A stretch of 64,000 nucleotides of DNA from Candidatus Magasanikiibacteriota bacterium. Its GTDB lineage: Bacteria; Patescibacteriota; Patescibacteriia; Magasanikbacterales; GWA2-37-8. Location of the stretch: positions 61,575 through 125,574 of the forward strand of contig JAPLWQ010000002.1 in assembly GCA_026396515.1 (NCBI GenBank), in the 5' to 3' direction. Of this stretch, positions 2,775 to 63,400 are shown in pieces. The number at the start of each line of letters is the position of its first letter. Positions within the stretch are counted from its first letter, which is position 1. The notes under the pieces were generated by a model that had not been told where the DNA came from, ran no database searches, and worked only from the letters and a program-made list of their open reading frames with translations. A program made the position numbers and the translations under genes.

Positions 2775-2782
2775 AAAATTTA

Positions 2783-15141: not shown

Positions 15142-15172
15142 ACATCTTAGATAGGGTTTCAGAAAATTACTT

Positions 15173-15303
15173 TTCGCAAACAGTGTCGGCCGGCTCCTGC
15201 GGCCGGCCGCACTTCGCGCTCGCCGCACAATCCGCCACGCCTGCCAGCCCCGGGCTGGGACGGAACCAAGCTTGTGCGGTTCCGCGATGTTGCTCAAAGC
15301 AAA
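15173..15303. repeat. Intergenic structured repeat, copy 2 (paired with 11468..11579)
   Basis: Same element as copy 1 plus a 20-nt hairpin insertion (CCAGCCCCGGGCTGG); the stem CGGAACC/GGTTCCG carries a compensatory change relative to copy 1. Confidence 0.55.
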
Positions 15304-17752: not shown

Positions 17753-17826
17753 GGGCATGTAGCTCAGCTGGTTAGAGCGCCACCCTTATAAGGTGGATGT
17801 CGATGGTTCAAGTCCATCCATGCCCA
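17753..17826 (+). tRNA. tRNA-Ile (anticodon UAU)
   Basis: Cloverleaf: GGGCATG/CATGCCC acceptor, GCTC-AGCTGGTTA-GAGC D-arm, CCACC-CTTATAA-GGTGG anticodon arm (TAT at 17787-17789), GATGG-TTCAAGT-CCATC T-arm, discriminator A; CCA not encoded. Confidence 0.85.
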
Positions 17827-17831
17827 CAAAT

Positions 17832-42270: not shown

Positions 42271-42300
42271 AAAATAGCGCCCTTCACAGGGCGCTATTTT
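42271..42300. terminator. Bidirectional terminator overlapping the miaA stop codon
   Basis: TAGCGCCC-TTCACA-GGGCGCTA followed by TTTT. Confidence 0.55.
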
Positions 42301-43213
42301 AATTATCTAGAAATTCTTTGGCCCAACCATCAGCTTCTGATGTTGACTCAAACCATTTTATTCGCTTATCGCGCCTAAACCATGTCATCTGACGCTTGGC
42401 GTAGCGGCGCGTGTCTCTCTTAATCATTTCAATCGCGTCGGCTAAAGAAATTTCTCCGCGCAAATAATATCCCACTTGTTTATACCCGATTCCGCTCATA
42501 GCGGGTAATGTCCAAAGATATTTTGTTGACAATTTTCTCACCTCTTCAACCAAACCGGCTTTTATCTGTTCCTCCGTCCGCTCGTTTATCCTCTGTACCA
42601 ATTCTTCTCGCGGTATATCCAAGCCAATTTGCAATGCCTCATAGCGCGGTGGCAATTTTTTTTGTTTTATCGTAAACGATTCGCCTGAAGATAACGCCAC
42701 TTCAATGGCGCGCATCACCCGGCGCGGATTTTTGAGATCAATTTTTTTCGCTGAAATAGGATCAGATGCTTTTAGCATTTCCATCAACTCGGATAAAGTT
42801 TTTTTCTCCAGTGCACTCCGCAATTTAATGTTGGGCGGCACAATCGGAATATCCAAATTATCCACTATCGCCCAGATATAGAGGCCGGTGCCGCCCACGA
42901 CAATCGGCAGCTTATTGCGCCGTAACACATCATCAATTGCCTCAAATGCCAATTTCTTATAATGTGCCAAAGTAAATTCTTCGTCAGGATTAACCACGTC
43001 GATCAGGTGGTGCCTAATACCTTGAACCAAATAATCGATATTTTTTTCTTCATTCTGCGCTTTAGCCGTTCCAATATCCATCCCTTTATATATCTGCCGC
43101 GAATCCGCATTTATTACCTCCCCGTTGTATTTTTTTGCCAACTCTAAACCCAGGGCCGTTTTTCCGGACGCAGTCGGACCAACAATAACGATAATTTTAG
43201 GCAATACCAACAT
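42299..43213 (-). CDS. miaA: tRNA dimethylallyltransferase
   Basis: IVIVGPTASGKTALGLELAKK P-loop; DSRQIYKGMDIGTAK. Confidence 0.9.
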   Translation of the reverse strand: MLVLPKIIVIVGPTASGKTALGLELAKKYNGEVINADSRQIYKGMDIGTAKAQNEEKNIDYLVQGIRHHLIDVVNPDEEFTLAHYKKLAFEAIDDVLRRNKLPIVVGGTGLYIWAIVDNLDIPIVPPNIKLRSALEKKTLSELMEMLKASDPISAKKIDLKNPRRVMRAIEVALSSGESFTIKQKKLPPRYEALQIGLDIPREELVQRINERTEEQIKAGLVEEVRKLSTKYLWTLPAMSGIGYKQVGYYLRGEISLADAIEMIKRDTRRYAKRQMTWFRRDKRIKWFESTSEADGWAKEFLDN

Positions 43214-43216
43214 ATT

Positions 43217-44524
43217 TTATATAATTTTTCCTTTCAGCACCCATTCTTTTGCTTCGAATATTTTTACCCTAACAATCGTATCGACCAAATTTGGCTCGCC
43301 CAGAAAGTTAACCAGCTTCATTTCTCTTGAATTCCCGGAGCATATTCCCTGCTCGCAATTTTCCACCAATACTTCCACAATACTGCCAACATATATCTGA
43401 TTTTTTCGCAGAGCCTGCGCTTCCATGATCTCCTGCAACTCTTCCCAGCGGCGTTTTTTTATTTCACGAGATACATCATCTTTAAATGCCTTGGCAGCGG
43501 GCGTACCGGAACGCTCTGAATACTTGGCGTTATAGGAAATATCTAAATCGCACTCTTTATATAGATCAAGCGTATTGTTAAATTGTTCATCCGTTTCTCC
43601 ACAAAACCCGACCATCAGATCCGCACCCACGGCCATATTCGGCCGGGCGACGCGAATTTTTTTAACGATTTCCACATATTGTTCACGCGTATATCGACGA
43701 TTCATCTTCCGTAATATTTCATTGTCTCCGCTCTGTGCCGGCAAATGAATATAATTCATTTGTTTGGGCAATTTCAGCGCTTCAGCCTGTACCGCATTAA
43801 AATACTGAGGATCCGGCGCGGTAAAATGCAGTCGCTCTAATCCTGCAATTTGATTCAATTCCCAAAGCAGCGCGGCAAAATGGTCGGACAAAAACGGATT
43901 TTCTTTAGAAAAACTTTCCGGATCCGGCGCAATATAATGATTTACGACCTGACCAAGCAAAGTGACTTCCAAGCCGCCTTTAACAACAAAATTGCGTACC
44001 TCATTCAGGATGTCAATTAACGACCGGTTGCGTTCACGCCCGCGGGCATTGGGCACCACGCAATAGGTACAAAAATTATTACAACCGGTTTGGATAGTAA
44101 TAAAGGCCCGGCTATGCGATTCACGCATTGGCTTTATGTTTAAATAGTCAAAATTTTTCTCCTGCTCAACATTTAATTCCTTAAGCCAAACTGGCAGGCG
44201 CGGCAATTCATCAATGCCAAACCATAAATCAACACCGGGAATTCTACGGCGCAATTTTCCACTCTCATCCCTGCCCGGCATACAACCGGTTATGGCAATT
44301 ATCATGTTTGTCTTTTGCCGGCGCAATGCTTGCCAATTACGGACAATACCACACACCCTGTCTTCTGCCGCCTGACGAACGCTACAAGTGTTAATTATGA
44401 GCAAATTTCCATCCTCCGGCCGTTCTACCGCTACATACCCCAAGGACGATAAAAAACCGGCGATCCTTTCGGAATCGTTCTTATTCATTTGGCAGCCCAT
44501 TGTTAAAATATAGTAACGGCGCAT
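43217..44524 (-). CDS. miaB: tRNA-i6A37 methylthiotransferase (radical SAM / MTTase)
   Basis: YYILTMGCQMN N-terminal MTTase domain; CNNFCTYCVVP radical-SAM motif; TRAM domain. Start taken at MRRYYIL (44524), not the track start 44599. Confidence 0.9.
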   Translation of the reverse strand: MRRYYILTMGCQMNKNDSERIAGFLSSLGYVAVERPEDGNLLIINTCSVRQAAEDRVCGIVRNWQALRRQKTNMIIAITGCMPGRDESGKLRRRIPGVDLWFGIDELPRLPVWLKELNVEQEKNFDYLNIKPMRESHSRAFITIQTGCNNFCTYCVVPNARGRERNRSLIDILNEVRNFVVKGGLEVTLLGQVVNHYIAPDPESFSKENPFLSDHFAALLWELNQIAGLERLHFTAPDPQYFNAVQAEALKLPKQMNYIHLPAQSGDNEILRKMNRRYTREQYVEIVKKIRVARPNMAVGADLMVGFCGETDEQFNNTLDLYKECDLDISYNAKYSERSGTPAAKAFKDDVSREIKKRRWEELQEIMEAQALRKNQIYVGSIVEVLVENCEQGICSGNSREMKLVNFLGEPNLVDTIVRVKIFEAKEWVLKGKII

Positions 44525-44561
44525 GAACGATATTCTAATCTTTTTATTAATATTATTCAAG

Positions 44562-44603
44562 AAAAGAAAAAGGCGCTTGAACGAAGATTTCTTGTTCAAG
44601 CGC
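44562..44603 (-). terminator. Strong rho-independent terminator ending the GC-rich two-gene cassette
   Basis: Minus strand: GCGCUUGAAC-loop-GUUCAAGCGC (10-bp perfect stem) followed by CUUUUUCUUUUC. Confidence 0.55.
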
Positions 44604-47720: not shown

Positions 47721-49505
47721 TTACTGTTGTCTCGCGCTAACCTCATTATTAAGCCGTTCTAAAAATTCTTGTTTGCTCATTTTTTCCTGTTTTTCCTGAC
47801 CGCGAATGCGTATCATCCAATCCCCTCCCTCAAGCTCTTTATCACCTACCACCACGATATATGGTATTTTTTCCGCTACCGCTTTACGCACGCGATTACC
47901 AAGCGTTTCATTGGCGCTATCAAGGTCGGCGCGCACACCTAAGTCGAAGAATTCCTTTTGCAAGCTCTCCGCTCCAGCAGTGTGTTTTTCCGAAACAGAA
48001 ATAAACCGCACTTGTACCGGAGAGAGCCATACAGGCCAAATACCGGCATAATGCTCTATCAAAAATGCGATAAATCTCTCATGAGTGGAAAGGGGGGCGC
48101 GATGAATAACAAACACTTCATTATTCTCTTTGCCGGTTTCATCGGTATATGTGAGGCTAAATCGCTTTTTCGCCGCGAAATCAAGTTGAATAGTGGACAT
48201 GGACTCTTCTCTGCCAATAACTGAGCGAAACTGCGTGTCCACCTTAGGCCCGTAAAATGCGGCCTCATCTTCAGCTTCAATAAATTTTACATCACTCTCC
48301 TCCAATACCTCACGGATCACTTGTTGGCTGTATTCCCAATTTTCCGGCTCATTTACATATTTGTCCAAATGCTTCGGACTCCACTTAGACAGCCGGAACC
48401 AATAATCTTTTAAGCCAAATATCTTATAGAAATTAATCGTCAAATCGAGTACGCCCTTAAACTCCTGTTTGATCTGATCTTTACGGCAATAGATATGAGC
48501 GTCATTCATCGCTAGGCCGCGTACGCGCAACAGGCCCGCCAAAGTTCCTGACAATTCATTGCGATAACACATCCCATATTCCGCTATGCGCAAAGGTAAA
48601 TCACGGTATGAGTGCATATCGTGATTATAGATAATGTGATGGTGCGGGCAATTCATCGCCTTCATATAATATGTGCCGTCATCCATAACCATTGGCGGAT
48701 ACATACTGTCTTTGTAATATGGCAGATGACCGGAGGTTAAAAATAGTTCCTCCTTTGCCATATGGGGCGTGGAGACGCGCACATAACCCGCTTCACGCTC
48801 TTTTTCAACAGCTAATTTTTCCACTTCATTTCTGATGATTGTGCCATTGGGTTGCCACATTATCAAGCCTTTACCCACAATATCATCAATAAAAAATAGT
48901 TTTTGTTCAGCGCCAATTTTCCGGTGGTCGCGCTTTTCCGCTTCTGCGAGCATGTTTAAATATTCATCCAATTGATTTTGCTTTTCAAAACAGACTCCAT
49001 AAACGCGCTGAAGCTGAGGATTCTCGTTTTTCCCCCGCCAATAAGCGCCGGCTAATTTTGTTAATTTAAAAGCGCCAATTTCTTTGCTTGAATCAAGATG
49101 CGGTCCTCGGCACAAATCAATAAAATCTCCTGTTTTATAGATTGACACCCCGTCGCCTGATAATTCCACTTCCTCTATGTCGCCAACTCTTGTTGTGCCC
49201 TTATTTTTTATATCGCTGAGCAGCTCCACTTTGTAATCCTGGCCTAATTTCTTGAATAGTTTGACAGCCTCGTCAATTGTCATTTCCTCCCTTTCAAATT
49301 TCACGCCATTTTTGATCAGTTCCCGGGCCCTGATCTCGATATTCAATAGCTCTGCCTCGCCGATCGGCTCGGGAAAATCAATATCATAATAAAAGCCATT
49401 TTCTACGGTCGGACCAACACCAAATTTTGCCTCAGGGTACAACGATTGAACTGCCGCTGCAATGAGATGGGCGCAAGAATGGCGCATTGTTCCAATATTT
49501 GCCAT
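47721..49505 (-). CDS. thrS: Threonine--tRNA ligase (lacks the N-terminal TGS domain)
   Basis: Starts at the editing domain (RHSCAHLIA); class II aaRS motifs; C-terminal anticodon-binding domain. Confidence 0.9.
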   Translation of the reverse strand: MANIGTMRHSCAHLIAAAVQSLYPEAKFGVGPTVENGFYYDIDFPEPIGEAELLNIEIRARELIKNGVKFEREEMTIDEAVKLFKKLGQDYKVELLSDIKNKGTTRVGDIEEVELSGDGVSIYKTGDFIDLCRGPHLDSSKEIGAFKLTKLAGAYWRGKNENPQLQRVYGVCFEKQNQLDEYLNMLAEAEKRDHRKIGAEQKLFFIDDIVGKGLIMWQPNGTIIRNEVEKLAVEKEREAGYVRVSTPHMAKEELFLTSGHLPYYKDSMYPPMVMDDGTYYMKAMNCPHHHIIYNHDMHSYRDLPLRIAEYGMCYRNELSGTLAGLLRVRGLAMNDAHIYCRKDQIKQEFKGVLDLTINFYKIFGLKDYWFRLSKWSPKHLDKYVNEPENWEYSQQVIREVLEESDVKFIEAEDEAAFYGPKVDTQFRSVIGREESMSTIQLDFAAKKRFSLTYTDETGKENNEVFVIHRAPLSTHERFIAFLIEHYAGIWPVWLSPVQVRFISVSEKHTAGAESLQKEFFDLGVRADLDSANETLGNRVRKAVAEKIPYIVVVGDKELEGGDWMIRIRGQEKQEKMSKQEFLERLNNEVSARQQ

Positions 49506-49555: not shown

Positions 49556-49751
49556 TCAAAAAACCCCGATACCTAAATATATAGATATCGGGGTCCTATT
49601 TTTTGATAAGACGGTTCCACCCGAATGTTTAACTTTTTATCAAGCTGTCTTGCTGCTCTGAGGGTGGTACCATATCCTGCTTAACAGGATTGGGCTGGTC
49701 CTCATTCAAACGCAACAATTATACTCTAAGACTATTCAATTTTCCTGTCAA
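49556..49751 (-). promoter_or_regulatory. T-box riboswitch leader of thrS (Thr ACC specifier) with promoter, Stem I, T-box/antiterminator and intrinsic terminator
   Basis: Minus strand: promoter TTGACA (49751-49746); Stem I base UGAGG/CCUCA with specifier AUAUGGU-ACC-A (ACC = 49668-49666); T-box AACAUUCGGGUGGAACCGUCU (core 49624-49613); antiterminator UCGGG-[UGGAACC]-GUCU...GGAC-CCCGA; terminator ACCCCGAUAUC...GGUAUCGGGGU plus U6 (49593-49558) sharing CCCGA with the antiterminator. Confidence 0.6.
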
Positions 49752-49784
49752 CCCACAGGCGCTCACAAATCATTCACGCCTTTT

Positions 49785-50270
49785 CTACTCAGTTGTTGTG
49801 GTGGGCGTACTAGTTTCATTCATAAAAATCGGTCCGACGTTTACCAATATATCATTTTCTTCATTATAAATTATCGCTTTCTTTGCCTGCATAAAAATAA
49901 TAACTTTATCGCCATTTTTTGCATCTTTATAGAATGCCTGCTCGGTCTTTAAAGCGTCAGCGTCGGTTATAGAAGCAACAGTCGGCTCTTCATCAGTTGG
50001 AAGAACAATATGCTTGCTAACTTTATCAAGCAAGGCTTTCACCTCCATTTTTGCCAAATCCTGCTGTCCTTGTGGAGTCGTTAACGAATTTATCCGCTTT
50101 TTCGCGACAGAGTACTTCACAAACATAACTAGACAGCCGGTTAGTGCCATAACAGCAATAATTAGCAAAATAATCATAAAGACCTTCTTTGGATTACCGC
50201 TTATAACAGATGGGGAGGCATCGCGACTATCTTCTTTGACCGGGTTAACTCTACGAATTGAAATCGGCAT
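49785..50270 (-). CDS. Hypothetical membrane-anchored protein (161 aa)
   Basis: ORF; TM VFMIILLIIAVMALTGCLVMFV. Confidence 0.5.
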   Translation of the reverse strand: MPISIRRVNPVKEDSRDASPSVISGNPKKVFMIILLIIAVMALTGCLVMFVKYSVAKKRINSLTTPQGQQDLAKMEVKALLDKVSKHIVLPTDEEPTVASITDADALKTEQAFYKDAKNGDKVIIFMQAKKAIIYNEENDILVNVGPIFMNETSTPTTTTE

Positions 50271-50364: not shown

Positions 50365-53300
50365 TTAACCGACTATCGGTTCGGTTGGTGGTTCTTCGGC
50401 AGGCGGTGTTTCAACAACAGGTTCTTCAACTACCGGTTCAGTTGGCGGTGTTTCAACAACAGGTTCTTCAACTACTGGAGTCTCTTCAGGTACAACCGGC
50501 GGAATATACAAAATCGATAAACCAATCGTGGTAGTAGTACCATCTGAGACAAATACTTTTGATTCCGGCAATGCTCCGAATACTTGCCAGTTGAATACGA
50601 CATCACTCATTTGTATGTCTGGTATTTCTATCCTGAAACCGGAAATGCCCGTGCCGGTTAATTTCCAGCGTCCATCGTAATCAAGCGGTGTCACGGTAAT
50701 AATTGGCATTGTCTCATACGGCTCCGCAAAAGTAATTGTCGTAGAAGAATGACCGGATAATATTTTTGCCTGGCCGACCGTATCTTCACCAAATGTCGTG
50801 TGTTTCTTCACGGCAAGCGTTCCATTAAACACAGCCGCGTTCTCAATTACTAGCATATTGGCCGCCAAACCATCATATACGCCGCTGAGTATGGATTCGC
50901 TGGATGTTGACATACTGGCGAGACGCGCTTCCAGATCAGATAAAGCGGTTTGTAAACTTGTTAACTGTGAATCAGTTGAGGAAGCACTGGTTTCTAACAC
51001 GATCATGCGACTATTTATCTCGGCGAGCATGGACTGTGTTTCAGTGAGAGAGAGATTCAACACATTTAACGATTCAGCCAAAGCAACGCTGGTTGAAGCT
51101 GTTTCGTCCAAAACAATACCATATGCATTAAGTACTGTTTTGATATCAACGATGTCCTTTGTGGTTGATACCGTTAATCCTTCCAGAGCAACCATGCGCT
51201 CATCTAAGGTCAATTCCACAGTAGAAGTCGGCTCCTCTTCAAGCACCAGCACCGTGTTACCCGGATCCTCTGCATCGTCTTGCCAGACACGATAATAATC
51301 GACATTTAAATAAACGCCGTTACTGGTTGAATAGTTCATAAGCATCGCAGCCAGATTGACCGTCGGAATGTTCGTGGTTGATTCACCGCAATATGTCCAA
51401 TTTATACCATCAGAGGAGTTGTTATCAACATAAAATTTAACTGACCCGCCACCTGCTCCGTTTGATGAAACAACTTCATATTTAAGCAGAGCGAAGACAG
51501 TATTATTAATTGTTTGCGCGGCGCATTCAATATTTGTTGAGACACCAGCCCGTCGCGTTACACCACGCCAATTTCCGGTAGCGGTATTATTGGTAAAATA
51601 TATACCATTGGTCGGATCACCGTTTTGCGCAGTGGCCCTGTCGCCGATACCAACCCACAACTTGTCATTTGCGCTGTCCGCTGATGGGAAAAGTTTCATC
51701 ATTGAAACCGGCAAGTTGTTGGCCGAAAATATGGTATGCGCGTTGCCCGTCGTTACACTACCGCTGTAAGCGAGACAACTGCCGCCCAGAAGCAATGCGC
51801 CCATTGTCTGTCGGCCAATTCCATTAATCGCATCATCAACCGTATCCCAGGTACAAGTACCATTTTCATCAACATTGAATATGGCATCATCACCCCAGGC
51901 GATGGCTGTGTCGGCGGATATTTGCGCCCGCTCTCGCATGAACTCTTCTCCGAAATATGAATTCCTACTCATCATTGCGCCTGCTTCAATTGACATACCA
52001 AAATTCGTTGATAAATTCTTTGCCTCACCTACTATATTACCGGCATTATTCTGCCACTGTTGAAGTGCCGCGGTCTGGCCGGAAGCACCCTGTACCACTA
52101 AACCAATGGTTGAACTGGCACGCGACAAAATGTGAACCTGGCCGGCAAATGAGTTCGTATCGTTGGCATGCCCGCCCAAACCGATATCTCCAACAGAGGA
52201 AATTTGTAAATCAGAATATTCGGTAGTAGTGCCAACGGGCTGGCGTTTAATACTCCAGTACGGCGAAGTGGCCCTTGTATCCAGACGAATAATTGCGCCA
52301 AGAGAGGAGGTGTTTCTATTTCCGATCTGAGTGACATTTACGCCGTAAGAAAGTAATTGACTGCCAACCTCAGTGAATAAACCCATCTTCCATGTGCTGC
52401 TATTGGTAAAATTCAAGCCAATCGAATCGGTGTTAACCGTACGATTCGGGAATGCTCCCGGGCCGATAGTCCAAGCCGCCGTGCCGGAAGTAATTCTAAC
52501 GTCTCCCTCGGCAACATGCAGTTTTGATAGCGGTGTGGAAGTACCGATGCCAAGGTACCCGACGTCGGAAAGAGTCATTCCTTCAACTGTTGAGATTGAT
52601 CCTTTTGGCGTTGTCGCCCATCTTAAAGACGTTCCATTATTTGTAATGGAGAAGTTTTCCTCCGCATAAGCCCGCATATAGGCATTAGCACTGGTAGAAA
52701 AAGCTGTTCCAAAATAACCTGAGAAACTATTGTTACCAATCACATCACCGGAAAGAAGCGCTGTTGGTGTTGCCTTGGTCCCATTGGCTCTGCGTTGTCT
52801 GATATTTGCGCCTGCAGTTCCATAAACATCAAGATACATTTGCGGACCCGATGATTGCTCAGTTGACAGGTGAAGTATGCCGGAAGGATCAGATGTGCCA
52901 ATACCGACATTGCCTGTATTTCTGATGGTCATACGCTCAAGAGGAGCTGTTCCTGTGGCAATATCCGGCGCCGTAAAAAATGTAAGTTTTCCCGGCACAG
53001 CCCAGGTGGAAGGATTGCCATCGACGGTTGCCCTGATCGAAGCCGCCTTTTGGAAATTGGTGCCGAAATATCCTTGGAAAATATTCTCGCCGAGAATATC
53101 ATTATTCTGAGATATTTCCGGAGACGCAAGTGTTCCGCGCGAACGGGTAAAATATAAAGCCGGGTACGCGCCTGTTCCGGTCGTGGAAAGCCTAATGTTT
53201 ATGTCCCCGACGTTACCATCTTCGGAATCAAGCTCAAACATTGAAGACACAGCCGACACACTCGGGATACTGGAGCCGAGGTTAATCTGCAAGCGATTGT

Positions 53301-55830
53301 TTCCAGTTGCATGTGAATTGCCGATACTCAGACTGTTATTTGTGCTATTCCAATATAATGTATTTGAGCTGGTGATGGTACTGGTTGAACTCCAAAAAGT
53401 AACTTGCCCGGCAGAACCTGAACCGGAAACGCTACTACTACCAACGCCAAAATCCTGCCACGTACCTGTTACGTTCTTAAACTGCATCACGCCGCTATTG
53501 TCACGGAAGCCATATCCGGACGAGCCGGCGGTAGTGCCAAAATTTAAGTATCTATTGCTGCCTGATAAAATCATACTGCCGTTAACATCCAATTTGGCGA
53601 GAGGCGAAGGTGTGCCAATACCGACGAGACCTTCACCATTAATTCTCAACCGCTCGGTAGCACCGCTGTAACCGTTGCTGGTGAAAAATCTGAAATCTCC
53701 ATAGGCGTATGAACCACTGGTGGTATTGACGCTACCCGTAATCCAGGAATCCATGAAGGCCGATGTAACTTGTGCGCCACTACTATCTACAGCATTGAAA
53801 CTGATAACGCCCATCCGAGAATTATCCGGTGTCTGACCGCCTGAAGATGATTTGCGATAGAATCGGAAACTCGGCCTATCAGCCGGCGTGTCACTGTCAA
53901 CTTCACTTCTAATATCATTATTTTTATTTTGTGATACTACACTAAGTTCATCAGTTAAAGTAGTTGTACCGATGCCAAGCCGACCATTCGCATTGTCCCA
54001 ATAAAAACTGCTTGTGCCTGCAATTGAACTGGTACCATTCCAGAAAGTTACTTGTCCGGAAGAACCCGATCCCACAATATTGCCGGTTCCAGTGGCGGTT
54101 CCTGTCGCGGTCAACGAGAGCCACTGCGAACCGGTGTAACCGAGAAAATCAGTACCGTTCCAAGCGATTGTGCCGGCAGTGGATGTGGGAGTAGTAGTAG
54201 CACCGATATTTATGGCGCCATTAACTGTTAATTTTTCGTATGTGGAAGTTGTACCGATCGCGACATTGCCATTTGATTCAATGCGCATACGTTCGGTAGA
54301 AGCGTCCGGAGGGCCATAACCACCAGCGTATAAAATTATATTTCCAGTCGGACCGGTCGCCGCAAGGGCCAAGCCATTTGCCTGAACATTCGGTCCGCCT
54401 GACATGAGAACGAGATAACCGGCTAAATTGGGCAAGCCATAATCATTGTAATTGGGAGAAGCCGCCATTAAATATCCTCCGTAATCACCTGTCTGGGCAA
54501 GAAAGCTGGCGGTAGAGCTCGGTCCAATATTGGGGTTAGACACACCGGCTATAGCCCAATAATCTGTATTTTGTTCAATATGCAATGGATAGCTCGGTGT
54601 GCTTGTACCAATGCCAAAAAACCCGTTCGTCTGATCCCAATAGAGCGAACTCGTGCCGGTGATTGAGTTTGTGCCATTCCAATAGGTTAATTGTCCGGCC
54701 GAACCTGAACCGTTAATGGTGCTACTTGCACCACCGGATGTGAAAGACAGCCACTGTGAACCGTTATATCCGAGGAAGTCGGAGCCATTATAGATAATGT
54801 CGCCGGCAGTGGAAGTCGGGGTGGTAGACGCGCCAATGTGAATACCGCCGTTTACGGTTAGCATTTCATAGGTGTTGGGGGTACCGATCGCGACGCGGCC
54901 GGTTTCTTCAATGCGCATCTTCTCGGAGGAAGTAGACGGCGGGCCATTTCCGTTGATATAAAAAACAATGTTACTGCCAGGATCACCGTTGGCGGCCAGG
55001 GCCAAACCTTTGGTCTGATCCATTGAAACCAAAGCCATATAACCGGCCAAATTTGTCAGACCATCTTGTGTAAAATTAGTTGAAGCTAAAAGTAAACCGC
55101 CCGAACTGCTGGCTGTTCGCATCATCAATCCCGAAATAGATGAGGTCCCGTTATTCTGATTTTCCAAAGCCATTGTCGGAGAAAAAGTATCGGTATTCTG
55201 AACAACATGCAACTGTGACATGGGCACGTTGGTTCCGATGCCAACAAAACCATTTGACTCAATACGCATGCGTTCAGAGGTTGTGGTCGGTCCCTCATTA
55301 CCGCCAACATAAAAAATAATATTATTATTATCTCCAACTGCTGCAAGGGCGATACCTCTCGCCATTTGGAAAGTAGCCAAGGTTAAATAACCAGCCATAT
55401 TGGTGTAACCATCCTGGCTGAAATTACTTGATGGCAGCATAAGAGCGCCACCAACATCATCAACGGTTAATCCTATCATCACTGCCGAACTGGCATTGTT
55501 CATGGTATTTTCAAACATGGCACCCGTCCAATCATTTACACTTTGTACAAGATGCAAAGGAGCCTGCGGGGTGCTTGTACCAATACCTAATCGTCCGTTG
55601 GCTTGATCCCAAAACAGAGAACTGGTTCCGGTGATTGAGTTTGTGCCATTCCAATAGGTTAACTGTCCGGCCGAACCTGAACCGTTGATGGTGCTACTTG
55701 CACCACCGGATGTGAAAGACAGCCACTGTGAACCGGTGTAGCCGTAAAAGTCCGTGCCAACGCTCACTTGATGTTGAAGGCCCTGAATTGCCGCCAGCAT
55801 AAAAAAGAATGTTATTGGTACTGTCACCAA
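50365..55830 (-). CDS. Giant repetitive cell-surface fibre protein (1821 aa): tail-fibre-like GYTGSQWLS... repeats, ConA/lectin-like region, coiled-coil stalk, Pro/Glu-rich C-terminal tandem repeats
   Basis: More than 12 copies of a ~50-aa module (...DFLGYTGSQWLSFTSGGASSTINGSGSAGQLTYWNGTNSITGTSSLYWD..NGRLGIGTSTP...LHV...); C-terminal PVVEEPVVETPPTEP x2 encoded by a 48-nt tandem repeat; the many antisense ORFs inside are spurious. Confidence 0.7.
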   Translation of the reverse strand: MVTVPITFFFMLAAIQGLQHQVSVGTDFYGYTGSQWLSFTSGGASSTINGSGSAGQLTYWNGTNSITGTSSLFWDQANGRLGIGTSTPQAPLHLVQSVNDWTGAMFENTMNNASSAVMIGLTVDDVGGALMLPSSNFSQDGYTNMAGYLTLATFQMARGIALAAVGDNNNIIFYVGGNEGPTTTSERMRIESNGFVGIGTNVPMSQLHVVQNTDTFSPTMALENQNNGTSSISGLMMRTASSSGGLLLASTNFTQDGLTNLAGYMALVSMDQTKGLALAANGDPGSNIVFYINGNGPPSTSSEKMRIEETGRVAIGTPNTYEMLTVNGGIHIGASTTPTSTAGDIIYNGSDFLGYNGSQWLSFTSGGASSTINGSGSAGQLTYWNGTNSITGTSSLYWDQTNGFFGIGTSTPSYPLHIEQNTDYWAIAGVSNPNIGPSSTASFLAQTGDYGGYLMAASPNYNDYGLPNLAGYLVLMSGGPNVQANGLALAATGPTGNIILYAGGYGPPDASTERMRIESNGNVAIGTTSTYEKLTVNGAINIGATTTPTSTAGTIAWNGTDFLGYTGSQWLSLTATGTATGTGNIVGSGSSGQVTFWNGTSSIAGTSSFYWDNANGRLGIGTTTLTDELSVVSQNKNNDIRSEVDSDTPADRPSFRFYRKSSSGGQTPDNSRMGVISFNAVDSSGAQVTSAFMDSWITGSVNTTSGSYAYGDFRFFTSNGYSGATERLRINGEGLVGIGTPSPLAKLDVNGSMILSGSNRYLNFGTTAGSSGYGFRDNSGVMQFKNVTGTWQDFGVGSSSVSGSGSAGQVTFWSSTSTITSSNTLYWNSTNNSLSIGNSHATGNNRLQINLGSSIPSVSAVSSMFELDSEDGNVGDINIRLSTTGTGAYPALYFTRSRGTLASPEISQNNDILGENIFQGYFGTNFQKAASIRATVDGNPSTWAVPGKLTFFTAPDIATGTAPLERMTIRNTGNVGIGTSDPSGILHLSTEQSSGPQMYLDVYGTAGANIRQRRANGTKATPTALLSGDVIGNNSFSGYFGTAFSTSANAYMRAYAEENFSITNNGTSLRWATTPKGSISTVEGMTLSDVGYLGIGTSTPLSKLHVAEGDVRITSGTAAWTIGPGAFPNRTVNTDSIGLNFTNSSTWKMGLFTEVGSQLLSYGVNVTQIGNRNTSSLGAIIRLDTRATSPYWSIKRQPVGTTTEYSDLQISSVGDIGLGGHANDTNSFAGQVHILSRASSTIGLVVQGASGQTAALQQWQNNAGNIVGEAKNLSTNFGMSIEAGAMMSRNSYFGEEFMRERAQISADTAIAWGDDAIFNVDENGTCTWDTVDDAINGIGRQTMGALLLGGSCLAYSGSVTTGNAHTIFSANNLPVSMMKLFPSADSANDKLWVGIGDRATAQNGDPTNGIYFTNNTATGNWRGVTRRAGVSTNIECAAQTINNTVFALLKYEVVSSNGAGGGSVKFYVDNNSSDGINWTYCGESTTNIPTVNLAAMLMNYSTSNGVYLNVDYYRVWQDDAEDPGNTVLVLEEEPTSTVELTLDERMVALEGLTVSTTKDIVDIKTVLNAYGIVLDETASTSVALAESLNVLNLSLTETQSMLAEINSRMIVLETSASSTDSQLTSLQTALSDLEARLASMSTSSESILSGVYDGLAANMLVIENAAVFNGTLAVKKHTTFGEDTVGQAKILSGHSSTTITFAEPYETMPIITVTPLDYDGRWKLTGTGISGFRIEIPDIQMSDVVFNWQVFGALPESKVFVSDGTTTTIGLSILYIPPVVPEETPVVEEPVVETPPTEPVVEEPVVETPPAEEPPTEPIVG
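55619..55759. repeat. 141-nt junction block, 100% identical to 57240..57380
   Basis: Exact identity over 141 nt, whereas in-frame paralogous copies elsewhere (e.g. ~54640-54770) differ at several positions. On the coding strand each block begins with TGGCACGGACTTTTACGGCTACACCGG. Confidence 0.7.
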
Positions 55831-57442
55831 CTGCAGCTATAGCGATACCATTAGCATTCTGGAAAGTAGCCAACGCCAGATATCCGGCCAAATGCGAATA
55901 TCCGCTTTCGTTAAAATTCTCCGATGCTACCATTAATCCGCCTTCGGCATTCCCGACTTTAAGTAATAGGGCGGCGGTCGAAGAAGCACCATTGACGGTA
56001 TTTTCGAGCGCCATATTTGCCGTAAAATCATTGCTATTATTCACCACATGAAGCGCATACTCCGGAGTCGTGGTGCCAATGCCTATATAACCATTATTAT
56101 CAACTGTCAATATATCAGCGGTACCCGTTGAGATTTTGAACAAGCCCGCGGCCGACGATGTAGTGTAGAGATCCAACAAATAATTCGGAGATGCGGTACC
56201 AATACCGACGAAACCATTGGCCTCAATACGCATTCGCTCAGTATTGGAGGTTGGGGGGCCATCATCAGTACCGGTGAAGAAAATGATGTTGCCGGTCTCA
56301 CCAGTTGCCGCCAAAGCCAAACCATTTGCCCCTACTCCATAACCTTCAGGGTCACTCTGTAATGCGGTCGGTCCACCAGACATTAACAACATATAACCGG
56401 CCAAATCTGAAAGGCCAAAGTCAGAGAAATTTTCTGATGCCATCAATAAATAACCACCGGCATTTCCAACCGACAATTTCAAAGCTGCGGTGGAGCTGGC
56501 GCTGGTGTTGGTATTGTGAATGGATTCTACCGCCCAATAATTTATGTCCTGAACGATATTTACAGCATAACTTGGTGTGGTAGTGCCAACGGCGAGACGG
56601 CCGTTATTTTTATCCCAAAACAAGGTATTTGTTCCAGTGATAGCGCTTGAGTTGTCCCAGAAAGCGACCTGGCCGGAAGAGCCGGAACCGGAGACTCCCC
56701 CACCACCGGCTGTGAATGACAGCCATTGTGAACCGGTATAACCGAGAAAGTCTGACCCGTCAAAGATAATATCGCCGGCAGTTGAAGTGGGAGTGGTAGA
56801 GGGGCCAATATTGATACCGCCATTAACGGTAAGTAATTCATAAGTTGAGCTGGTACCGATGGCGACTCGGCCATTGTTTGCAAGCCGCATCCATTCACTT
56901 GATTGATCCCCATTGCCGTAAAAAACGGTATTGCCTGTTGGGCCGGCAATTAAAGCCAAGCCATTGCCCTGATCACCCTGCGACATGGTGGAAAAAAGAG
57001 CTGTATATCCCGCTAAATTTGTCATTCCAGCATCGCTAAAATTAACACCAGCCACTCCAACGCCGCCTGTATAATTACCGACTTTAAACACTGCCAGAGC
57101 GGTTGAGCTAGGGCCGCTATTTAAATTTTCAAATAAGGCGCTTGGTCCATCAAGATTAATATCATTTACTAAATGCAATCCCCATTGCGGAGTAGAGGTG
57201 CCGATACCTAACCTTCCATTAGTATTATCCCAATAGAGCGAACTGGTTCCGGTGATTGAGTTTGTGCCATTCCAATAGGTTAACTGTCCGGCCGAACCTG
57301 AACCGTTGATGGTGCTACTTGCACCACCGGATGTGAAAGACAGCCACTGTGAACCGGTGTAGCCGTAAAAGTCCGTGCCAGTTACTTTCAACGCGCATTC
57401 TCTCTGTATTAGCAGTCGGCGGTCCATATCCGGTGCCGGCAT
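55694..57442 (-). CDS. 582-aa ORF of the same repeat family, bounded on both sides by the 141-nt junction blocks; probably an internal segment of a larger gene
   Basis: The N-terminus after RECALK-VTG runs into GTDFYGYTGSQWLSFTSGG...; the C-terminus ends with the out-of-frame tail WHGLLRLHRFTVAVFHIRWCK, identical to the tail of the upstream ORF. Confidence 0.5.
   Translation of the reverse strand: MPAPDMDRRLLIQRECALKVTGTDFYGYTGSQWLSFTSGGASSTINGSGSAGQLTYWNGTNSITGTSSLYWDNTNGRLGIGTSTPQWGLHLVNDINLDGPSALFENLNSGPSSTALAVFKVGNYTGGVGVAGVNFSDAGMTNLAGYTALFSTMSQGDQGNGLALIAGPTGNTVFYGNGDQSSEWMRLANNGRVAIGTSSTYELLTVNGGINIGPSTTPTSTAGDIIFDGSDFLGYTGSQWLSFTAGGGGVSGSGSSGQVAFWDNSSAITGTNTLFWDKNNGRLAVGTTTPSYAVNIVQDINYWAVESIHNTNTSASSTAALKLSVGNAGGYLLMASENFSDFGLSDLAGYMLLMSGGPTALQSDPEGYGVGANGLALAATGETGNIIFFTGTDDGPPTSNTERMRIEANGFVGIGTASPNYLLDLYTTSSAAGLFKISTGTADILTVDNNGYIGIGTTTPEYALHVVNNSNDFTANMALENTVNGASSTAALLLKVGNAEGGLMVASENFNESGYSHLAGYLALATFQNANGIAIAAVGDSTNNILFYAGGNSGPSTSSERWHGLLRLHRFTVAVFHIRWCK
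57240..57380. repeat. 141-nt junction block, 100% identical to 55619..55759
   Basis: See the paired block. Confidence 0.7.
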
Positions 57443-60400
57443 AAAAAATAATATTACCGGTCGGACCTGTCGCCGCTATAGCCAAACCATCGGCCTGTAC
57501 GTCCGGCCCACCGGACATCAAAATCATGTAACCGGCTAAATTTGATAATCCGTAATCGGCAAAATTTTGCGAACCGGCGACCAAATATCCTCCATAATCC
57601 CCAACTTGCATACGCATGCCCGCCGTGGAACTGGGACCGGTATTGGAATTTTGTATGACATTAAGCGCCCACAAATCGTTATTTTGAACGATGTGTAATG
57701 GAAAAGACGGCGTACTCGTGCCGATTCCAAGATTTCCATTTGTTTCATCCCAGTACAATGAACTGGAACCGGTGATGGAACTTCCAGTATCCCAGTAAGC
57801 AAGCTGACCGGCAGACCCGGAGCCGTAAACGTTGCCGGTGCCAGTGGCTGTACCGGTCGCAGTCAATGAAAGCCATTGCGAGCCATTATAACCGATAAAG
57901 TCAGTGCCATTAAATGCGATAGTTCCGGCAGTGGAGGTTGGTGTAGTTGTTGCTCCGATGTTGATTCCACCGGCAACGGTTAACCTTTCATATGTGGAGC
58001 TGGTACCAATAGCTACATCGCCATTATTTTCAATGCGCATTCTTTCCGTATCCATGGTCGCCGGGCCATAACCACCGGTGTAGAACATAATATTCCCCGA
58101 AGAGCCGGCGAGCAAAGCAATACCATTACCTTGTGTACCCGGAGAAACAGTAGAAACTAAAACAGTATAACCGGCTAAATTGGTCAGGCCGTAATCACTA
58201 AAATTCTCACCAGCTATCCCAATGCCGCCAGTATAATTTCCAATCTTAAACTGTAATAATTCGGTTGAACTTGCACCATTATTTAAGTTTTCAAAAGTGG
58301 TAAGCGGACCATTATAATCTTCGTTGTGAACGACATGTAAGTTATACCCTGGGGTGGTCGTGCCGATACCAAGCCGGTTGTTTAGGTCATCCCAGAAAAA
58401 ATTGCTGTTATCCTGCGCCAGTTTGCCGGAAGAACTGACAAAAATTATTGAGCCCGGAGTAAAGCCGCCGATATCAGAACCGATCAGGCCGAGCGAAGAC
58501 GTGGAAATCCAGCTCGGCGCGCCCGAACCGTTTGAAACAAGAAGCTGACCAGCAGTCCCAGTCGCGGTTAATTCTAATGAATCGGCGTCAGAATAAGCAA
58601 TGGCACCGGCCAAAGCAGTCATATTCCTATTAGTGCCGCCGTTTGCCATAGCAAGCACTCCAGTAATATCGAGCCCCGACGCCAAATTAACCGTTCCTGT
58701 TGATATCACTCCGGCAGTAGCTCGTAATAGCCCGCTTAAGTTATCCACGGTTAAATGAGAAATTGTTGTGGTAGATAATGTAGAAAGACCAGTGAAGTAT
58801 GAATAACCGGAAAAAGTATTGGTCGCAGAAAACAAATTGTCTACTCCAGTGCCTGCAAAGCCGGTATGGCCGGACAAATCATAACTTAAACCGCTCAAAG
58901 AGCTGTGCGCGGTAGCAAGATAACTGCCATTGGGGATATTAGCCGAGTTTCTCAAGTCCTGAGTTTCTTGAAATGACACCGTTCCACCGATGTTCCTCAA
59001 GATGACCCTGTATAGCACTTTCATTTCCGCATATGGCAAATTCCCAAGCGCCAATGTATCAAACGTGTTATTTGTCCGCGCATTGCCGATTGAGGTGTCC
59101 TGACGCTGGCCCATTAAAGAGACAATCGGCGTCAAGGGATCGTTTGTCGCAAAAATCCAATAGGCAACATAATTACCAGAGCTGACGGTTGACGTGCCGG
59201 TCCCATTATCATAAAAGAGTGTTCCACCTCCGCTTGTTAAATAGTAAGCGCTTTGCGAACCGGTAAAACGATAGTTGGTGGCACCGTCATGAAAAAAGAC
59301 CTGAAACTGCGTGGCTGTAGATATGTCATGGCGGACATCTTCATCCCATATAGCGCCGGAGGAAACAGAGCCGGTAGCATTTGAGAATGTGCCTGCCAGA
59401 CCGGATTCGTAACGTGTGCCGATGGTAAAATGCAAATACTGATGGGTCAAACCGTCCATTGTCAGGCCGTGCCGCTCATCACCCAATTCGCCTGTTAGCG
59501 TATTTTGATTCCAATATACAGTAGCGATGGGAATGTTGGGCGAAGCGATAGTCCAGGCGACAGTTGATGATGTAAGAACGCCGGTGCTTGTGTAATAGAA
59601 ATAATACGAACCAGTGATGTTCGGAATTGAAACAGATCCCGTGCTTTTAGTTATTGCACTACCGCCGGAATAAACTCGGAAATTTGTACCTGTGATCGTA
59701 AAAGTGCGCGTCGATGTCGCAAATGAAAGCGAGGTGTCAGTGCGGTTGGGAAAACCGGTGGCTTCGCTTCTGAGCGATGCAAGATTTGTAAGAGACCGCC
59801 AAGCGCCGCCGTCATATCCTTCAAAATCGCCGGTGGTAGTGCTGAATCTCATTGATCCGTTAATACCGGTGCCCGTGTTGCCTATCCTGATAGCGCCGCT
59901 ACCGGAACCATCAACAAGATCCAATCTTTGCGAAGGAGTTGTTGTCCCTATCCCCAAACGACTGTTCACACTGTCCCAATATAATGATGTTGTACCTGCA
60001 ATTGAACTGGTACTATTCCAATATGCGAGCTGGCCCGACGCGCCTGAACCGGAAATACTACTCGTGCCTGTGGCTGTAAGCGATAACCACTGCGAACCGG
60101 TGTAGCCAATAAAGTCTGTGCCGTTAAAAGCAATTGTGCCGGCTGTTGATGTTGGAGTCGTGGTGGCGCCGATATTGATGCCACCGGCCACCGTAAGTTT
60201 TTCATGAGTTGAAGTCGTGCCAACAGATAAGTAGGATGTAAGCACTCCCGTGCCGGCGGTCAAGCCGCCGGTGGTGGTTATATTGCCCGCGCCGAAAGAG
60301 GCGTTTCCAACGTTGAAAGTGATTGATTGCCCGGCGGCAGTAGCGCTGAAAATTCCATATATCAATGCATTTGCTTTATCCCCCGAAGAACTGCCTCTAT

Positions 60401-63400
60401 CTTGGTTATCTATATATAAACTGTTTGACCCGTTCTCATAAAATCCGGCGTAATTCCCAATACCAACATTGCCCGAGCCAAGAGCACTATATAAAGAATA
60501 GAAACCGAATGCCGCGTTGCTATTGCCGGTGCTGTTGGAGCGGAGCGCGTTTGTGCCTACGGCAGTGTTATAAGAACCCGAAGTATTGGAAGTCAAAGCG
60601 CTATTGCCTTGGGCATTGTTGTTCGTTCCGGTGGTGTTGCCCGACAAGGCTGCATTTCCGATGGCATTATTTCCAAAACCGGTAGTGTTATTGGTCAAAG
60701 CGCTGTTACCAAAAGCTGAGTTGGAAAAACCGGTAGTATTATTCTTAAAAGTGTCACTGCCGGCGGCCACGTTTGACGAGCCGGACATACCGGTATTTCC
60801 GGCGTTACCGAAGAAATAGTTGGCAAGTGCAGTATCACCATAAGCAAGGTTTACATTGTTGAGTTTCAGAATTGAACCGGTCGTAATATTTATATCTCCT
60901 TTCACGTCCAGAGCGTGAGATGGGGCGCTGACACCTACACCCAAATAGCCATTTGTATTATTCCAATACAAAGAACTCGAGCCGGTTATAGAAGTTGCTC
61001 CGTTCCAGAAAGCCAGCTGACCGGCAGAGCCGGAACCCATAATTGTACTGCTTGCCCCGCCAGCGGTGAACGAAAGCCATTGCGAACCGGTGTAGCCCAC
61101 AAAATCAGAGCCGTCCCAAGTAATGGTGCCGGCTGTTGAAATCGCTGTGGTGGTAGCACCAATATTTACAGCGCCGCCTACTGTCAGCATTTCATAAATT
61201 GAACTTGTTCCAACACCCACTGAACCGCCAAAATAAGACGGCGAACTCGTTGAGGAAACGATTAGCGCTCCGGTAGTATATAACCCACCATCACCAACTG
61301 AAATACTGTCTAACACCCGTAATCTCTTATCTGCCACTATTTCATCTTTAATATAAAGTTTGCCTGCGGTCAGAGAACCAAAATTCCCCGTCAGCAAATT
61401 AACACCCGGCAGAGAATATGTTTTAAGAGTGGTGCTTGTATAAGGAATATCGGCAAAACCAACATAGAGATAATTATGTACGGCGGCAAACGTCAATGGC
61501 AAATGGCCGGATCCGGTCCAAAAAGAAGATATTAAAATCGGATTAGTGGATGAAGCCACATTAGCTTGATAGATGCTTCCATCCCAACTGCTTAAAATTG
61601 CCGTAGTTCCATAAACCTTAATAAAATTAGCCGCTGAATCTGTTAGATGCATACCGCCTTCTTTGTATGCATTAGTTGGATCGGAAATATTTATAATAAC
61701 CAATTTGTCGGTACTCGTTGATGTGGTGAAAGAACCGCCGGAAGCCATATACAAATGATCTCCTGAAATATCCATAGACCAACCGCCCTCGCCTGTATCA
61801 ATAGAACTTCCTCCCACAATAAATGGATTAGTAGGATCTGAAACATCATAAATTCTAAAATGGTCGTAATTGCTGGTTTCATTGCGAGACAAGATATAAA
61901 GATAACCATTATAATATTTGACAGACCAACCAGCGTTAGCCGACCAAGTTAAACTGGTACTGTTAACAACACGAGGATTATAAGGATCGGCAATGTCAAC
62001 AATAATTAAGCCTCCTCCTCCTAGGGTTAGGATATAGGCGTATCTTCCGGAAACATCAATCGCATTACACTGACTATAAGGAGAGATGTCCAAATTTTGT
62101 CCTCCTGTAACATACGGAGTCTTTGGATTTTTAATATCCACTATTCTTAGACAATTGGCCGTAGTCGTGCTATGGAGAGTGACATAAGCATAATTTCCTT
62201 GTAGATCAATACCCTTGCCTCCGCCACCCACGGCTCCATTCGGAAAATTAGCAATGGGCCCGCTGTTTATTACCTCCGGCACGGTAGGATTTGTGATGTC
62301 TACAATTCGTAAAACAGGATCAGTCAGGGATTCATAAGTAATGGTATATAGAAAATTTCCTGAAACATCCATTGAACGCAAGGAGGAATTAAAGTCGGAA
62401 GACGAGTCAAAAAGTTCCGTTCCATTATCATTGGTTGACATACAGTTAATTCCGTCGACCGAAAAACATGGCGCAGTAATCATCCCACTACTATTTAGAG
62501 TACCCGATACAGCAACGTTTCCGGCGATCTGCAAAGCAGAAGTGGTGTCATCTGTCGCTCCGCCAATTAAAACTCGAACGGACGAGGAAGCGGTCGGATA
62601 AAGTTTTCCGCTTGCTTCTGTCCACGCTCCTCCGCCCGCTGTAAGGGATAACCAATTCGAACCATTAAAACCGATAAAGTCAGAACCGTTCCAAGCAATC
62701 GTTCCCGTTACGGAGGTCGCCGTCGTAGTAGCGCCGAGAGTGATAGCGCCGGACACGGTCAATGTGCCTGAAGGACTAAAATATCCAAGAGTGTTCAGAC
62801 TGCCCAAATCACCATTCATGAACATTATATTGCCGGTCGCCGAAGCCAGAACCAAATTTCCCTGCGCGCCGCGCTGCTGAACAAACATTGAATTCGGCAT
62901 ACCTGAATCACCGCCTGAGACTGCGAATATCCGATGTTGAGTAATATCGTTTTCAAGTGTAATAACCGGACCGGCGCCAAAATCCGAAGTGGTAGAATTT
63001 TTTACCGTCAAAACCGTATTATGTTCAGAATTATTTTCCTGAGTGAAATCATTACCTTCCATCCGATAATTACCCCTAGTGTAAATATTTCCGGTGGAAC
63101 CTTCCACACTAAATCTGGTACCGGTCGGCGATACAACAGATATGTAAAGACCGGCGGCAGTATCCTGAATATTATTTGAACCCAACTTGATTCCTTCAAA
63201 CGTGCTAAAAATCACGACATCTTCAGATGAAGTATTGGCTAGAAAAAATGCCGCGCCGATGTCACTATTGCCTTGCCGCATACCCACTACACTCACTGTA
63301 CCCATCATCGGTACTGCGACGCGCTCCAACGCAATCGTCGGATTGCCCGCCTGATCATATATAAAGAGACCTGCGCCGCTAAACCCGAATGGATCGGATG

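Follow-up and report, generated by a model that had tools for sequence, protein, structure and literature searches.

A probable T-box-family leader with a truncated Stem I upstream of thrS in a Candidatus Magasanikiibacteriota bacterium

Introduction

Does a bacterium of the Candidate Phyla Radiation (CPR) control its threonyl-tRNA synthetase gene with a T-box, and with which parts of a T-box would it do so? The locus that raises the question is the leader of thrS in a 64,000-nucleotide (nt) stretch of a Candidatus Magasanikiibacteriota genome (contig JAPLWQ010000002.1). We call this whole stretch the window, and all positions are numbered within it. The leader lies on the minus strand at 49558..49751, between thrS and an upstream open reading frame (ORF) at 49785..50270. 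An original prediction, made by a model from the letters alone, had placed here a T-box with a threonine ACC specifier that controls thrS by competition between a terminator and an antiterminator, in a CPR genome. Conservation, covariation, the match of codon to gene, and predicted energetics all bear that proposal out. We consider it highly likely, judging from sequence comparison and folding, that the leader is a T-box-family element that senses tRNA-Thr charging and controls thrS by transcription attenuation. It is not, as we will see, a complete T-box.

The gene and the parts of its leader

The ORF downstream of the leader, at 47721..49505 (-), is thrS. Its 594-amino-acid product carries the Pfam domains tRNA_SAD, tRNA-synt_2b (the class II core) and HGTP_anticodon. 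In contigs representing one genome per species, the top matches of this threonyl-tRNA synthetase (ThrRS) are metagenome-assembled genomes of Candidatus Magasanikbacteria, with 86, 80, 75, 72, and 59% identity, in agreement with the CPR-like gene content described earlier for this DNA. The next-best matches come from Uhr-, Falkow-, and Saccharibacteria, all of them CPR, and then from Bacillaceae, the closest non-CPR kin, at 45-47% identity.

From the base of Stem I to the U tract the leader measures about 160 nt. Its parts are given below in the order of transcription, together with what supports each of them. Loci compared with the window carry L numbers.

49746..49751 (-): -35 hexamer TTGACA, from a consensus scan; TTGACA stands at the equivalent position in L001, L002, and L133
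49723..49728 (-): -10 hexamer TAGAGT, from a consensus scan, with a 17-nt spacer from the -35 hexamer
49653..49715 (-): whole Stem I, truncated, supported by covariation
49712..49715 with 49653..49656 (-): Stem I basal helix UUGC/GCAG, covarying in 9 of 14 sequences
49705..49711 and 49657..49658 (-): GA-motif region, 5′ GUUUGAA and 3′ GA, part of Stem I
49700..49704 with 49659..49663 (-): Stem I lower helix UGAGG/CCUCA, supported by covariation
49694..49699 (-): 5′ strand of the specifier loop, ACCAGC, invariant in window-type leaders
49664..49669 (-): 3′ strand of the specifier loop, U-ACC-A-C, with the specifier ACC at 49666..49668 and the purine A49665 next to it
49670..49693 (-): upper Stem I, with CCA/UGG (49691..49693 with 49670..49672), a bulged A49673, and a variable hairpin AUCCUG-UUAAG-CAGGAU
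49625..49652 (-): A-rich linker without conserved structure; RNAalifold predicts no pairs
49610..49630 (-): T-box sequence AAACAUUCGGGUGGAACCGUC, with high posterior probability in the alignment to the Rfam T-box model RF00230; the motif precedes thrS in many CPR loci
49588..49624 (-): antiterminator, with helix A1 UCGGG/CCCGA, a 7-nt bulge UGGAACC, and helix A2 GUCUUAU/AUAGGAC
49558..49597 (-): intrinsic terminator, a 16-bp hairpin at 49560..49597 with U6 at 49558..49563

Every element named in the original prediction is present, among them the promoter, TTGACA-17-TAGAGT at 49751..49723 (-); Stem I, with its UGAGG/CCUCA base and AUAUGGU-ACC-A on the 3′ side; and AAACAUUCGGGUGGAACCGUC at 49610..49630 (-). 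The conserved GCG of the Stem I base follows the -10 hexamer after 9 nt in the window, and after 9-11 nt in L001, L002, and L133. We also tried TATAAT at 49717..49722 as the -10 hexamer and rejected it; it lies 22 nt from the -35 hexamer, and transcription would begin inside Stem I. Above the lower helix, Stem I opens into a 6x6 internal loop and then closes into the upper hairpin. For the conserved T-box sequence AGGGUGGNACCGCG, the window has UCGGGUGGAACCGUC at 49610..49624, in which the invariant core GGGUGGNACCG is matched and the flanks differ. The UGGA at 49616..49619 is predicted to be the part that pairs with the tRNA 3′ end UCCA.

The antiterminator with its UGGAACC bulge, also foreseen, comes out as the predicted minimum-energy fold of the segment 49588..49624, at -11.6 kcal/mol. 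The terminator hairpin has -23.8 kcal/mol (z = -6.6; none of 200 shuffles folds as well), and it appears in the minimum-energy fold of the full leader too. The terminator is 12 kcal/mol more stable than the antiterminator, and because both folds use CCCGA (49588..49592), the two are mutually exclusive. Here the earlier description was right about the U6 and the shared CCCGA, and short on the stem, which has 16 bp rather than 11 bp. A simple terminator scan reported none in the region despite the 16-bp hairpin and the U6, and we take that as a limitation of the tool.

The start codon of thrS, the ATG at 49505, comes about 50 nt past the U tract, and the hairpin ends 52 nt before it. With U6 after the hairpin and about 50 nt between its end and the ATG, control would be transcriptional and not translational. 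The folds of the leader show no pairing with the start region of the kind a class II sequestrator over the Shine-Dalgarno sequence or start codon would make.

A separate property of the leader is that its two key strands resemble each other's complement. The specifier-side strand AUGGUACCACCCUC (49660..49673, -) is complementary at 13 of 14 positions to GGGUGGAACCGU (49611..49624, -) on the T-box side, and the whole-leader minimum-energy fold pairs the two. In window-type leaders, 9 of 10 positions of AUGGUACCAC(CCUC) are complementary to the T-box strand (GGG)GUGGAACCGU; in the window itself, the count is 13 of 14. The pairing rules account for part of this, since ACC-A looks like an NCCA end and the CCA/UGG helix has GGU as its 3′ strand. 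No covariation bearing on a pairing between these two strands was found.

Proposed mechanism

How would such a leader work? Transcription would start a few bases past the -10 hexamer at 49723..49728. The first part to fold would be Stem I, whose internal loop would expose ACC-A, on its 3′ side, for pairing with the tRNA-Thr anticodon GGU. A bound tRNA that is uncharged could pair with the UGGA bulge through its 3′ end, U73-CCA; the tRNA-bound state would then stabilize the weak antiterminator at 49588..49624, and RNA polymerase would read through into thrS. With a charged tRNA, or with none, the much more stable terminator at 49560..49597 with its U6 would form, and transcription would stop about 50 nt before the start codon. 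Termination would thus be the default state.

Conservation and covariation in relatives

Is the leader kept where thrS is kept? Of the 6 Magasanikbacteria-like genome loci, 3 have the motif GGUGGAACC no more than 700 nt ahead of thrS, and loci of Falkow-, Uhr-, and Saccharibacteria have it upstream of thrS as well. L001, L002, and the window have long blocks in common: ATGAGGACCAGCCCA, a variable hairpin, ATGGTACCACCCTCAGAGC, a variable linker, AAACATTCGGGTGGAACCGTCTT, and then AGGACCCCGATATCT..AGGTATCGGGGTTTTTT. A scan of metagenomes with the pattern GGGTGGAACCGTC-N(5-35)-GGACCCCG gave 91 loci, about 55 of them with thrS 70-1300 nt downstream. The other loci are mostly chance matches in high-GC coding sequence, truncated contigs, and leaders of glycine genes, to which we return below.

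From 14 window-type leaders we built a covariance model, R1. Its one strong match in the 64-kb window (49560..49722, -; 153.9 bits) is partly circular, since the window sequence is in the seed. R1 also recovers leaders in L001, L002, L003, and L005, that is, before thrS or a thrS operon in 4 of the 6 Magasanikbacteria-like loci. With these and the metagenome contigs, the expectation that the leader would be found upstream of thrS in relatives has held. In all, the leader is conserved, with covariation, in at least 18 distinct relatives.

The same 14 window-type leaders make up alignment A1, on which we tested a structure written by hand and consisting of the basal, lower, and upper helices of Stem I and helices A1 and A2 of the antiterminator. 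In this alignment 91.5% of the cells form a standard pair, versus 80.9% when columns are shuffled, and only 27-51% do when the partners are slid by 1-3 columns. The covariation score is 0.347 versus 0.162 for shuffled columns, and none of 500 shuffles reaches 0.347.

Where does this signal come from? The lower helix forms in every sequence (100%), and 3 of its 5 pairs have changed on both sides (U-A/C-G/A-U and G-C/A-U exchanges), and in a wider alignment all five pairs are formed in 23 of the 23 best-matching sequences. For the basal helix, nine sequences show covariation (GAUGC/GCAUC, GAUAC/GUAUC, GUCGC/GCGGC, and others), and a subgroup of the L083 type has a different junction. The upper hairpin varies in sequence and length in almost every leader, and its pairing is maintained. 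An independent prediction by RNAalifold contains both the lower and the upper helix, A2, and a terminator whose distal stem pairs show compensatory changes. Antiterminator pair 153-180 occurs as C-G or U-G.

For the upper helix there are two possible registers. RNAfold and RNAalifold choose GCC/GGU, which L088 fits by a U to C change; L167 keeps CCA/UGG as UCU/AGA, that is, with two compensatory pairs. Since L167 fits it better, CCA/UGG is probably the register to prefer.

The specifier codon follows the gene

In the window, the ACC-A at 49665..49668 precedes thrS, so the codon is the one expected for the gene and is followed by a purine. In at least 50 thrS leaders, the specifier varies solely from ACC to ACU (L152, L081, and L116). 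Both are threonine codons, and both can be read by the anticodon GGU. Leaders in which Stem I is a simple hairpin present the codon in a 7-9-nt loop, CUACCAA, CCACCAA, or similar, which is GAUACUAA in L081 and L116. As evidence for function that needs no experiment, nothing here is stronger than this match of codon to downstream gene.

ACCA is found on both strands of the internal loop. We considered the copy on the 5′ strand as specifier and rejected it: in relatives with a long Stem I, the 5′ strand of the loop reads UCCAGC (L123, L139, and L152) or AUAAGC (L167), so that ACCA is replaced by UCCA or AUAA, while the 3′ strand keeps ACC-A, or ACU in L152.

Among the loci of the metagenome scan, there are also hairpin-loop leaders that have GGC or GGA at the place of the specifier, and these sit upstream of dimeric glycine--tRNA ligase genes (NCBIfam, E = 1e-156 to 1e-160). 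GGC is found in L096/L138, L136, L159, L101, and L147, and GGA in L110/L169; all have a T-box core, a terminator, and a hairpin-loop Stem I. Transcriptional T-boxes without a platform are therefore not confined to thrS.

The discriminator base can be followed in the same way. A UGGA bulge predicts U73 in the tRNA. The tRNA-Thr(CGU) genes on L061 and L155 and the tRNA-Thr(UGU) gene on L169 all end in ...GGC-U-CC(A), with U73; their anticodons are not GGU and the genomes are other ones. One of these, L061, is a Saccharibacteria contig whose own thrS bears a GGUGGAACC leader. A U73 complementary to the A of UGGA in related tRNA-Thr genes is consistent with the proposed pairing, but indirect.

What weighs against the reading

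Several results count against calling this leader a working T-box, and the first is that a standard search does not report it. With permissive settings on 501 nt, RF00230 matches 49586..49832 (-) with 20.5 bits (E = 0.018), far from reaching the gathering score of 93. The posterior probability of the alignment is high only at the T-box sequence and the antiterminator; Stem I is aligned wrongly, pushed upstream into the neighboring ORF. The Infernal search proposed as a check therefore comes out negative at the Rfam threshold, with a 3′ half that aligns well, and we judge the test too strict. At the gathering threshold we found no T-box in 20 related loci either, a Bacillaceae control included. 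That control helps to calibrate the threshold: the canonical thrS T-box of Psychrobacillus (L015, 2474..2701) scores 90.8 bits, versus 20.5 for the window leader, and is still dropped at the gathering score of 93 (Rfam 15). When a canonical T-box is excluded too, the gathering score is a weak yardstick, and surveys based on such thresholds undercount T-boxes. Falkowbacteria thrS leaders obtain 56.6 bits (L054, E = 1e-9) and 36.1 bits (L031), and a metagenomic thrS leader with a long Stem I (L166) obtains 43.4 bits with a sensible full-length alignment. These scores indicate that there is a family signal across CPR thrS leaders, and that it fades as Stem I shrinks.

The second point is the architecture itself. 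The "full set of T-box elements in canonical order" that had been claimed is not there. We found no distal platform (AGAGA bulge and UGxRA loop) in the window's Stem I, the upper stem of which is a 9-bp hairpin with a UUAAG loop and a bulged A, too short to reach the tRNA elbow. The specifier loop, with ACCAGC on one strand and UACCAC on the other, has no AGUA/GAA S-turn. No Stem II or IIA/B pseudoknot is seen in the 28 nt between Stem I and the T-box sequence, where no conserved helix is predicted, and RNAalifold gives no consensus pairs for a Stem III in the linker 5′ of the T-box sequence. The window does have a marginal 5-bp hairpin at the Stem III position (49631..49646, -2.5 kcal/mol), a stability that 14 of 200 shuffles also reach, and in L137, L170, and L160 the folding energy of the linker is 0 kcal/mol. 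At the base of Stem I, the region 5′ GC-GUUU-GA-A-UGAGG / 3′ CCUCA-GA-GC resembles the K-turn pattern gC-gaU-GA / GA-Gc with one nucleotide extra; some relatives have GUA for GAA, and the L083 type has the bulge on the other strand. What the predicted folds leave is reduced compared with a canonical T-box: a base resembling a K-turn, above it a helix of 5 bp, the 6x6 specifier loop, and a short hairpin, followed by 28 nt of unstructured linker and then the discriminator. Modules that are regarded as necessary for tRNA binding are absent. A 2020 review calls the platform essential for transcriptional T-boxes, and tRNA binding by a truncated Stem I without Stem II barely detectable (PMC7583486).

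Third, the element is dispensable in some lineages. L004 and L006, whose ThrRS proteins are 72% and 55% identical to that of the window, have no T-box by motif or by model R1. Fourth, the T-box core and helices A1 and A2 are invariant, partly fixed by the search pattern, and so provide no covariation information. Finally, the tRNA partner was not found: there is no tRNA-Thr(GGU) gene in the window nor in 171 loci, and in the window no tRNA-Thr gene of any anticodon.

Alternative explanations

Could the leader then be a decayed T-box, one that no longer binds tRNA, with a promoter-proximal terminator that attenuates thrS constitutively or under some other control, and with T-box-like sequences that are remnants? 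The loss of the elbow platform and Stem II, the lack of a conserved Stem III, and the poor binding reported for truncated forms are what such a history would leave behind, and so would L004, which retains just a hairpin and a U run before thrS, and L006, which retains nothing. A relic, however, would not be expected to persist in this state across many lineages. The specifier loop, the UGGA bulge, and the antiterminator strands do not vary among leaders with ThrRS proteins only 44-86% identical to that of the window, compensatory changes preserve the helices, and the only changes of the specifier are synonymous, all of which points to purifying selection on specifier, bulge, and helices. We regard decay as unlikely.

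A leader of thrS also brings to mind the autoregulation of E. coli thrS, in which ThrRS itself binds an operator. The UGGUA within AUGGUACC would here mimic the anticodon loop of tRNA-Thr, and indeed the 3′ strand of the loop contains a U-GGU-A identical to the core of the tRNA-Thr(GGU) anticodon loop, just ahead of the right gene. That GGU is accounted for as the 3′ strand of the CCA/UGG helix, and sibling thrS leaders with the 7-nt loop CUACCAA have no GGU, so what they display is the codon and not the anticodon. An operator would need neither a T-box core nor a UGGA bulge nor a terminator/antiterminator pair. In the E. coli type, anticodon-arm mimics bound by ThrRS are next to the ribosome-binding site, whereas here the terminator separates the element from the start codon, which lies 50 nt past it with no overlapping structure. 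This explanation seems to us very improbable.

A functional element on the plus strand, on which GAGGGUGGUACCAU looks like a T-box core, is scarcely credible: the look-alike (GGTGGTACC at 49663..49671, +) does exist, as had been pointed out, but it stems from the palindrome GGUACC and the ACC-A pairing rules, has no RF00230 match even at E = 10 and only a 17.9-bit R1 match on the palindromic terminator, and lies on a strand that runs antisense into ORF 49785..50270, the terminator and downstream gene being on the minus strand only.

Variation among related leaders

The T-box-family reading can be followed through a graded series of Stem I forms in thrS leaders. One grade has a long Stem I with AGAGA-like and UGxRA-like motifs (L123, L167, L166, and L122, for example). 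A second has the truncated Stem I with internal loop, as in the window (about 18 distinct sequences), and a third has a bare hairpin loop (about 25 sequences). In all three, a hairpin and a U-run follow. Among leaders with a ThrRS 60-86% identical to that of the window, the truncated form and the hairpin form are found mixed with each other, which suggests, on this comparison, a repeated reduction of Stem I.

Relatives also differ in what stands between the leader and thrS. In L003 (1561..4776), the T-box is 1.3 kb upstream, before an HAM1-like ORF and a GNAT acetyltransferase gene, and then comes thrS. A threonine T-box precedes a GNAT-family acetyltransferase gene and then thrS in L003, L005 (2245..4770), L097, L099, L126, L130, and L156, which suggests a T-box-controlled operon. 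L004 has at 2880..2960 a promoter-like site and a hairpin CGATATCT..AGATATCG with a U run before thrS, and this hairpin resembles the terminator of the window.

A palindromic repeat of about 55-90 nt (CACCCCGTTAAAT ... ATTTAACTGGGT, enclosing two GC-rich hairpins) is inserted in the thrS leaders of several relatives, at these places:

L001, 2800..2875
L002, about 2715..2805
L161, about 1000..1050 and 1145..1205 (two copies)
L100, in the leader

The repeat sits in the linker, and in L002 in the loop of the antiterminator. It looks like a small mobile repeat, and the window has no copy of it. The linker tolerates large insertions (L001, L100, and L161), and the antiterminator loop tolerates one (L002).

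Other features of the window

Upstream of the small ORF next to the leader are two very large ORFs, at 50365..55830 (-) and 57315..63860 (-), of 1821 and 2181 amino acids. Genes for tRNA modification are also present in the window, miaA (IPP transferase), a miaB-like radical SAM/TRAM enzyme, and queA, as is RNase J. These genes are found at the following places:

42299..44599 (-)
14041..15297 (-)
28028..29821 (+)

An Rfam scan of the window at gathering thresholds reports two tRNAs only. One tRNA in the window is a tRNA-Ile with anticodon UAU, at 17753..17827 (+), found by ARAGORN and with 75.9 bits for the Rfam tRNA model. Most bacteria decode AUA by a lysidine-modified CAU tRNA, and a genomic UAU isoacceptor is uncommon. 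Among the 23 ORFs of the window tested with Pfam, there is no other aminoacyl-tRNA synthetase gene, and we found no other T-box; the remaining GGTGGNACC matches in the window fall within ORFs and have no R1 match.

Comparison with known T-boxes

T-boxes are well known, and this is not a new kind of system. The window leader has much in common with the canonical transcriptional T-boxes of Bacillota (RF00230; thrS/thrZ of Bacillus subtilis): the gene, the ACC and purine on the 3′ side of the Stem I internal loop, the GGGUGGAACC core with a predicted UGGA bulge, the mutually exclusive antiterminator and terminator, and a probable GA motif at the base of Stem I. Bacillaceae thrS genes carry GGGTGGAACC upstream. 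Unlike the canonical ones, the window leader has no AGAGA/UGxRA platform, no AGUA/GAA S-turn, no Stem II, no IIA/B pseudoknot, and no conserved Stem III. The T-boxes of glyQS type (glycine) share with it a simple linker from Stem I to the discriminator, the lack of a Stem II domain, and control by transcription termination (PMC11297988), but they retain a long Stem I with the elbow-binding platform, and Stem III.

The Actinobacterial ileS T-boxes with intermediate or ultrashort Stem I are similar in another respect. As PMC7583486 and PMC11297988 describe them after Sherwood et al. 2015, their Stem I is truncated and has no double-T-loop platform; in the ultrashort type, the specifier is in a hairpin loop, as it is in the 7-nt loop of sibling CPR thrS leaders. 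By the same accounts, these T-boxes sequester the ribosome-binding site, and need Stem II and the IIA/B pseudoknot for tRNA binding. The window leader has an intrinsic terminator with U6 well ahead of the start codon, no Stem II, and the specifier in an internal rather than a terminal loop. Neither described class joins an intrinsic terminator to a Stem I that has no platform, with Stem II absent and no Stem III conserved.

T-boxes are textbook regulators in the Bacillota (Firmicutes), and surveys list smaller sets of them in Actinobacteria, Chloroflexi, Deinococcus-Thermus, and a few Proteobacteria (PMC2494555; TBDB preprint). We found no literature linking T-boxes with CPR, Patescibacteria, Saccharibacteria, or Parcubacteria, though entries may exist in TBDB or in the Rfam full alignment.

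Perspectives

How would an RNA with so few contacts catch its tRNA? The invariant loop strand ACCAGC and the A-rich linker are our guesses for what might stand in for the platform and Stem II. We put forward tentatively, leaning slightly against it ourselves, that CPR (Magasanikbacteria and others) carry a functional minimal class of transcriptional T-box that catches tRNA fast enough to beat RNA polymerase without platform, Stem II, or Stem III; new contacts made by the invariant 6x6 loop (5′ ACCAGC / 3′ UACCAC) and the A-rich linker, or a protein helper, would take their place. If this is true, the current rule that makes the platform essential to transcriptional T-boxes has exceptions, and an RNA of about 160 nt would be the smallest natural scaffold for sensing tRNA charge.

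In several CPR lineages, leaders that sense tRNA appear to be common ahead of thrS and probably of glyS as well, and they escape a standard Rfam scan at the gathering threshold. Within one lineage, Stem I goes from long and platform-bearing, to truncated with an internal loop, to a bare 7-nt hairpin loop, each form coupled to an intrinsic terminator. Such a series would amount to an experiment of nature, showing which tRNA contacts kinetic, co-transcriptional control really requires, and would offer a compact scaffold for engineered tRNA sensors. For the biology of these bacteria, it is a hint that organisms with minimal biosynthetic capacity still directly monitor the charging of their tRNAs.

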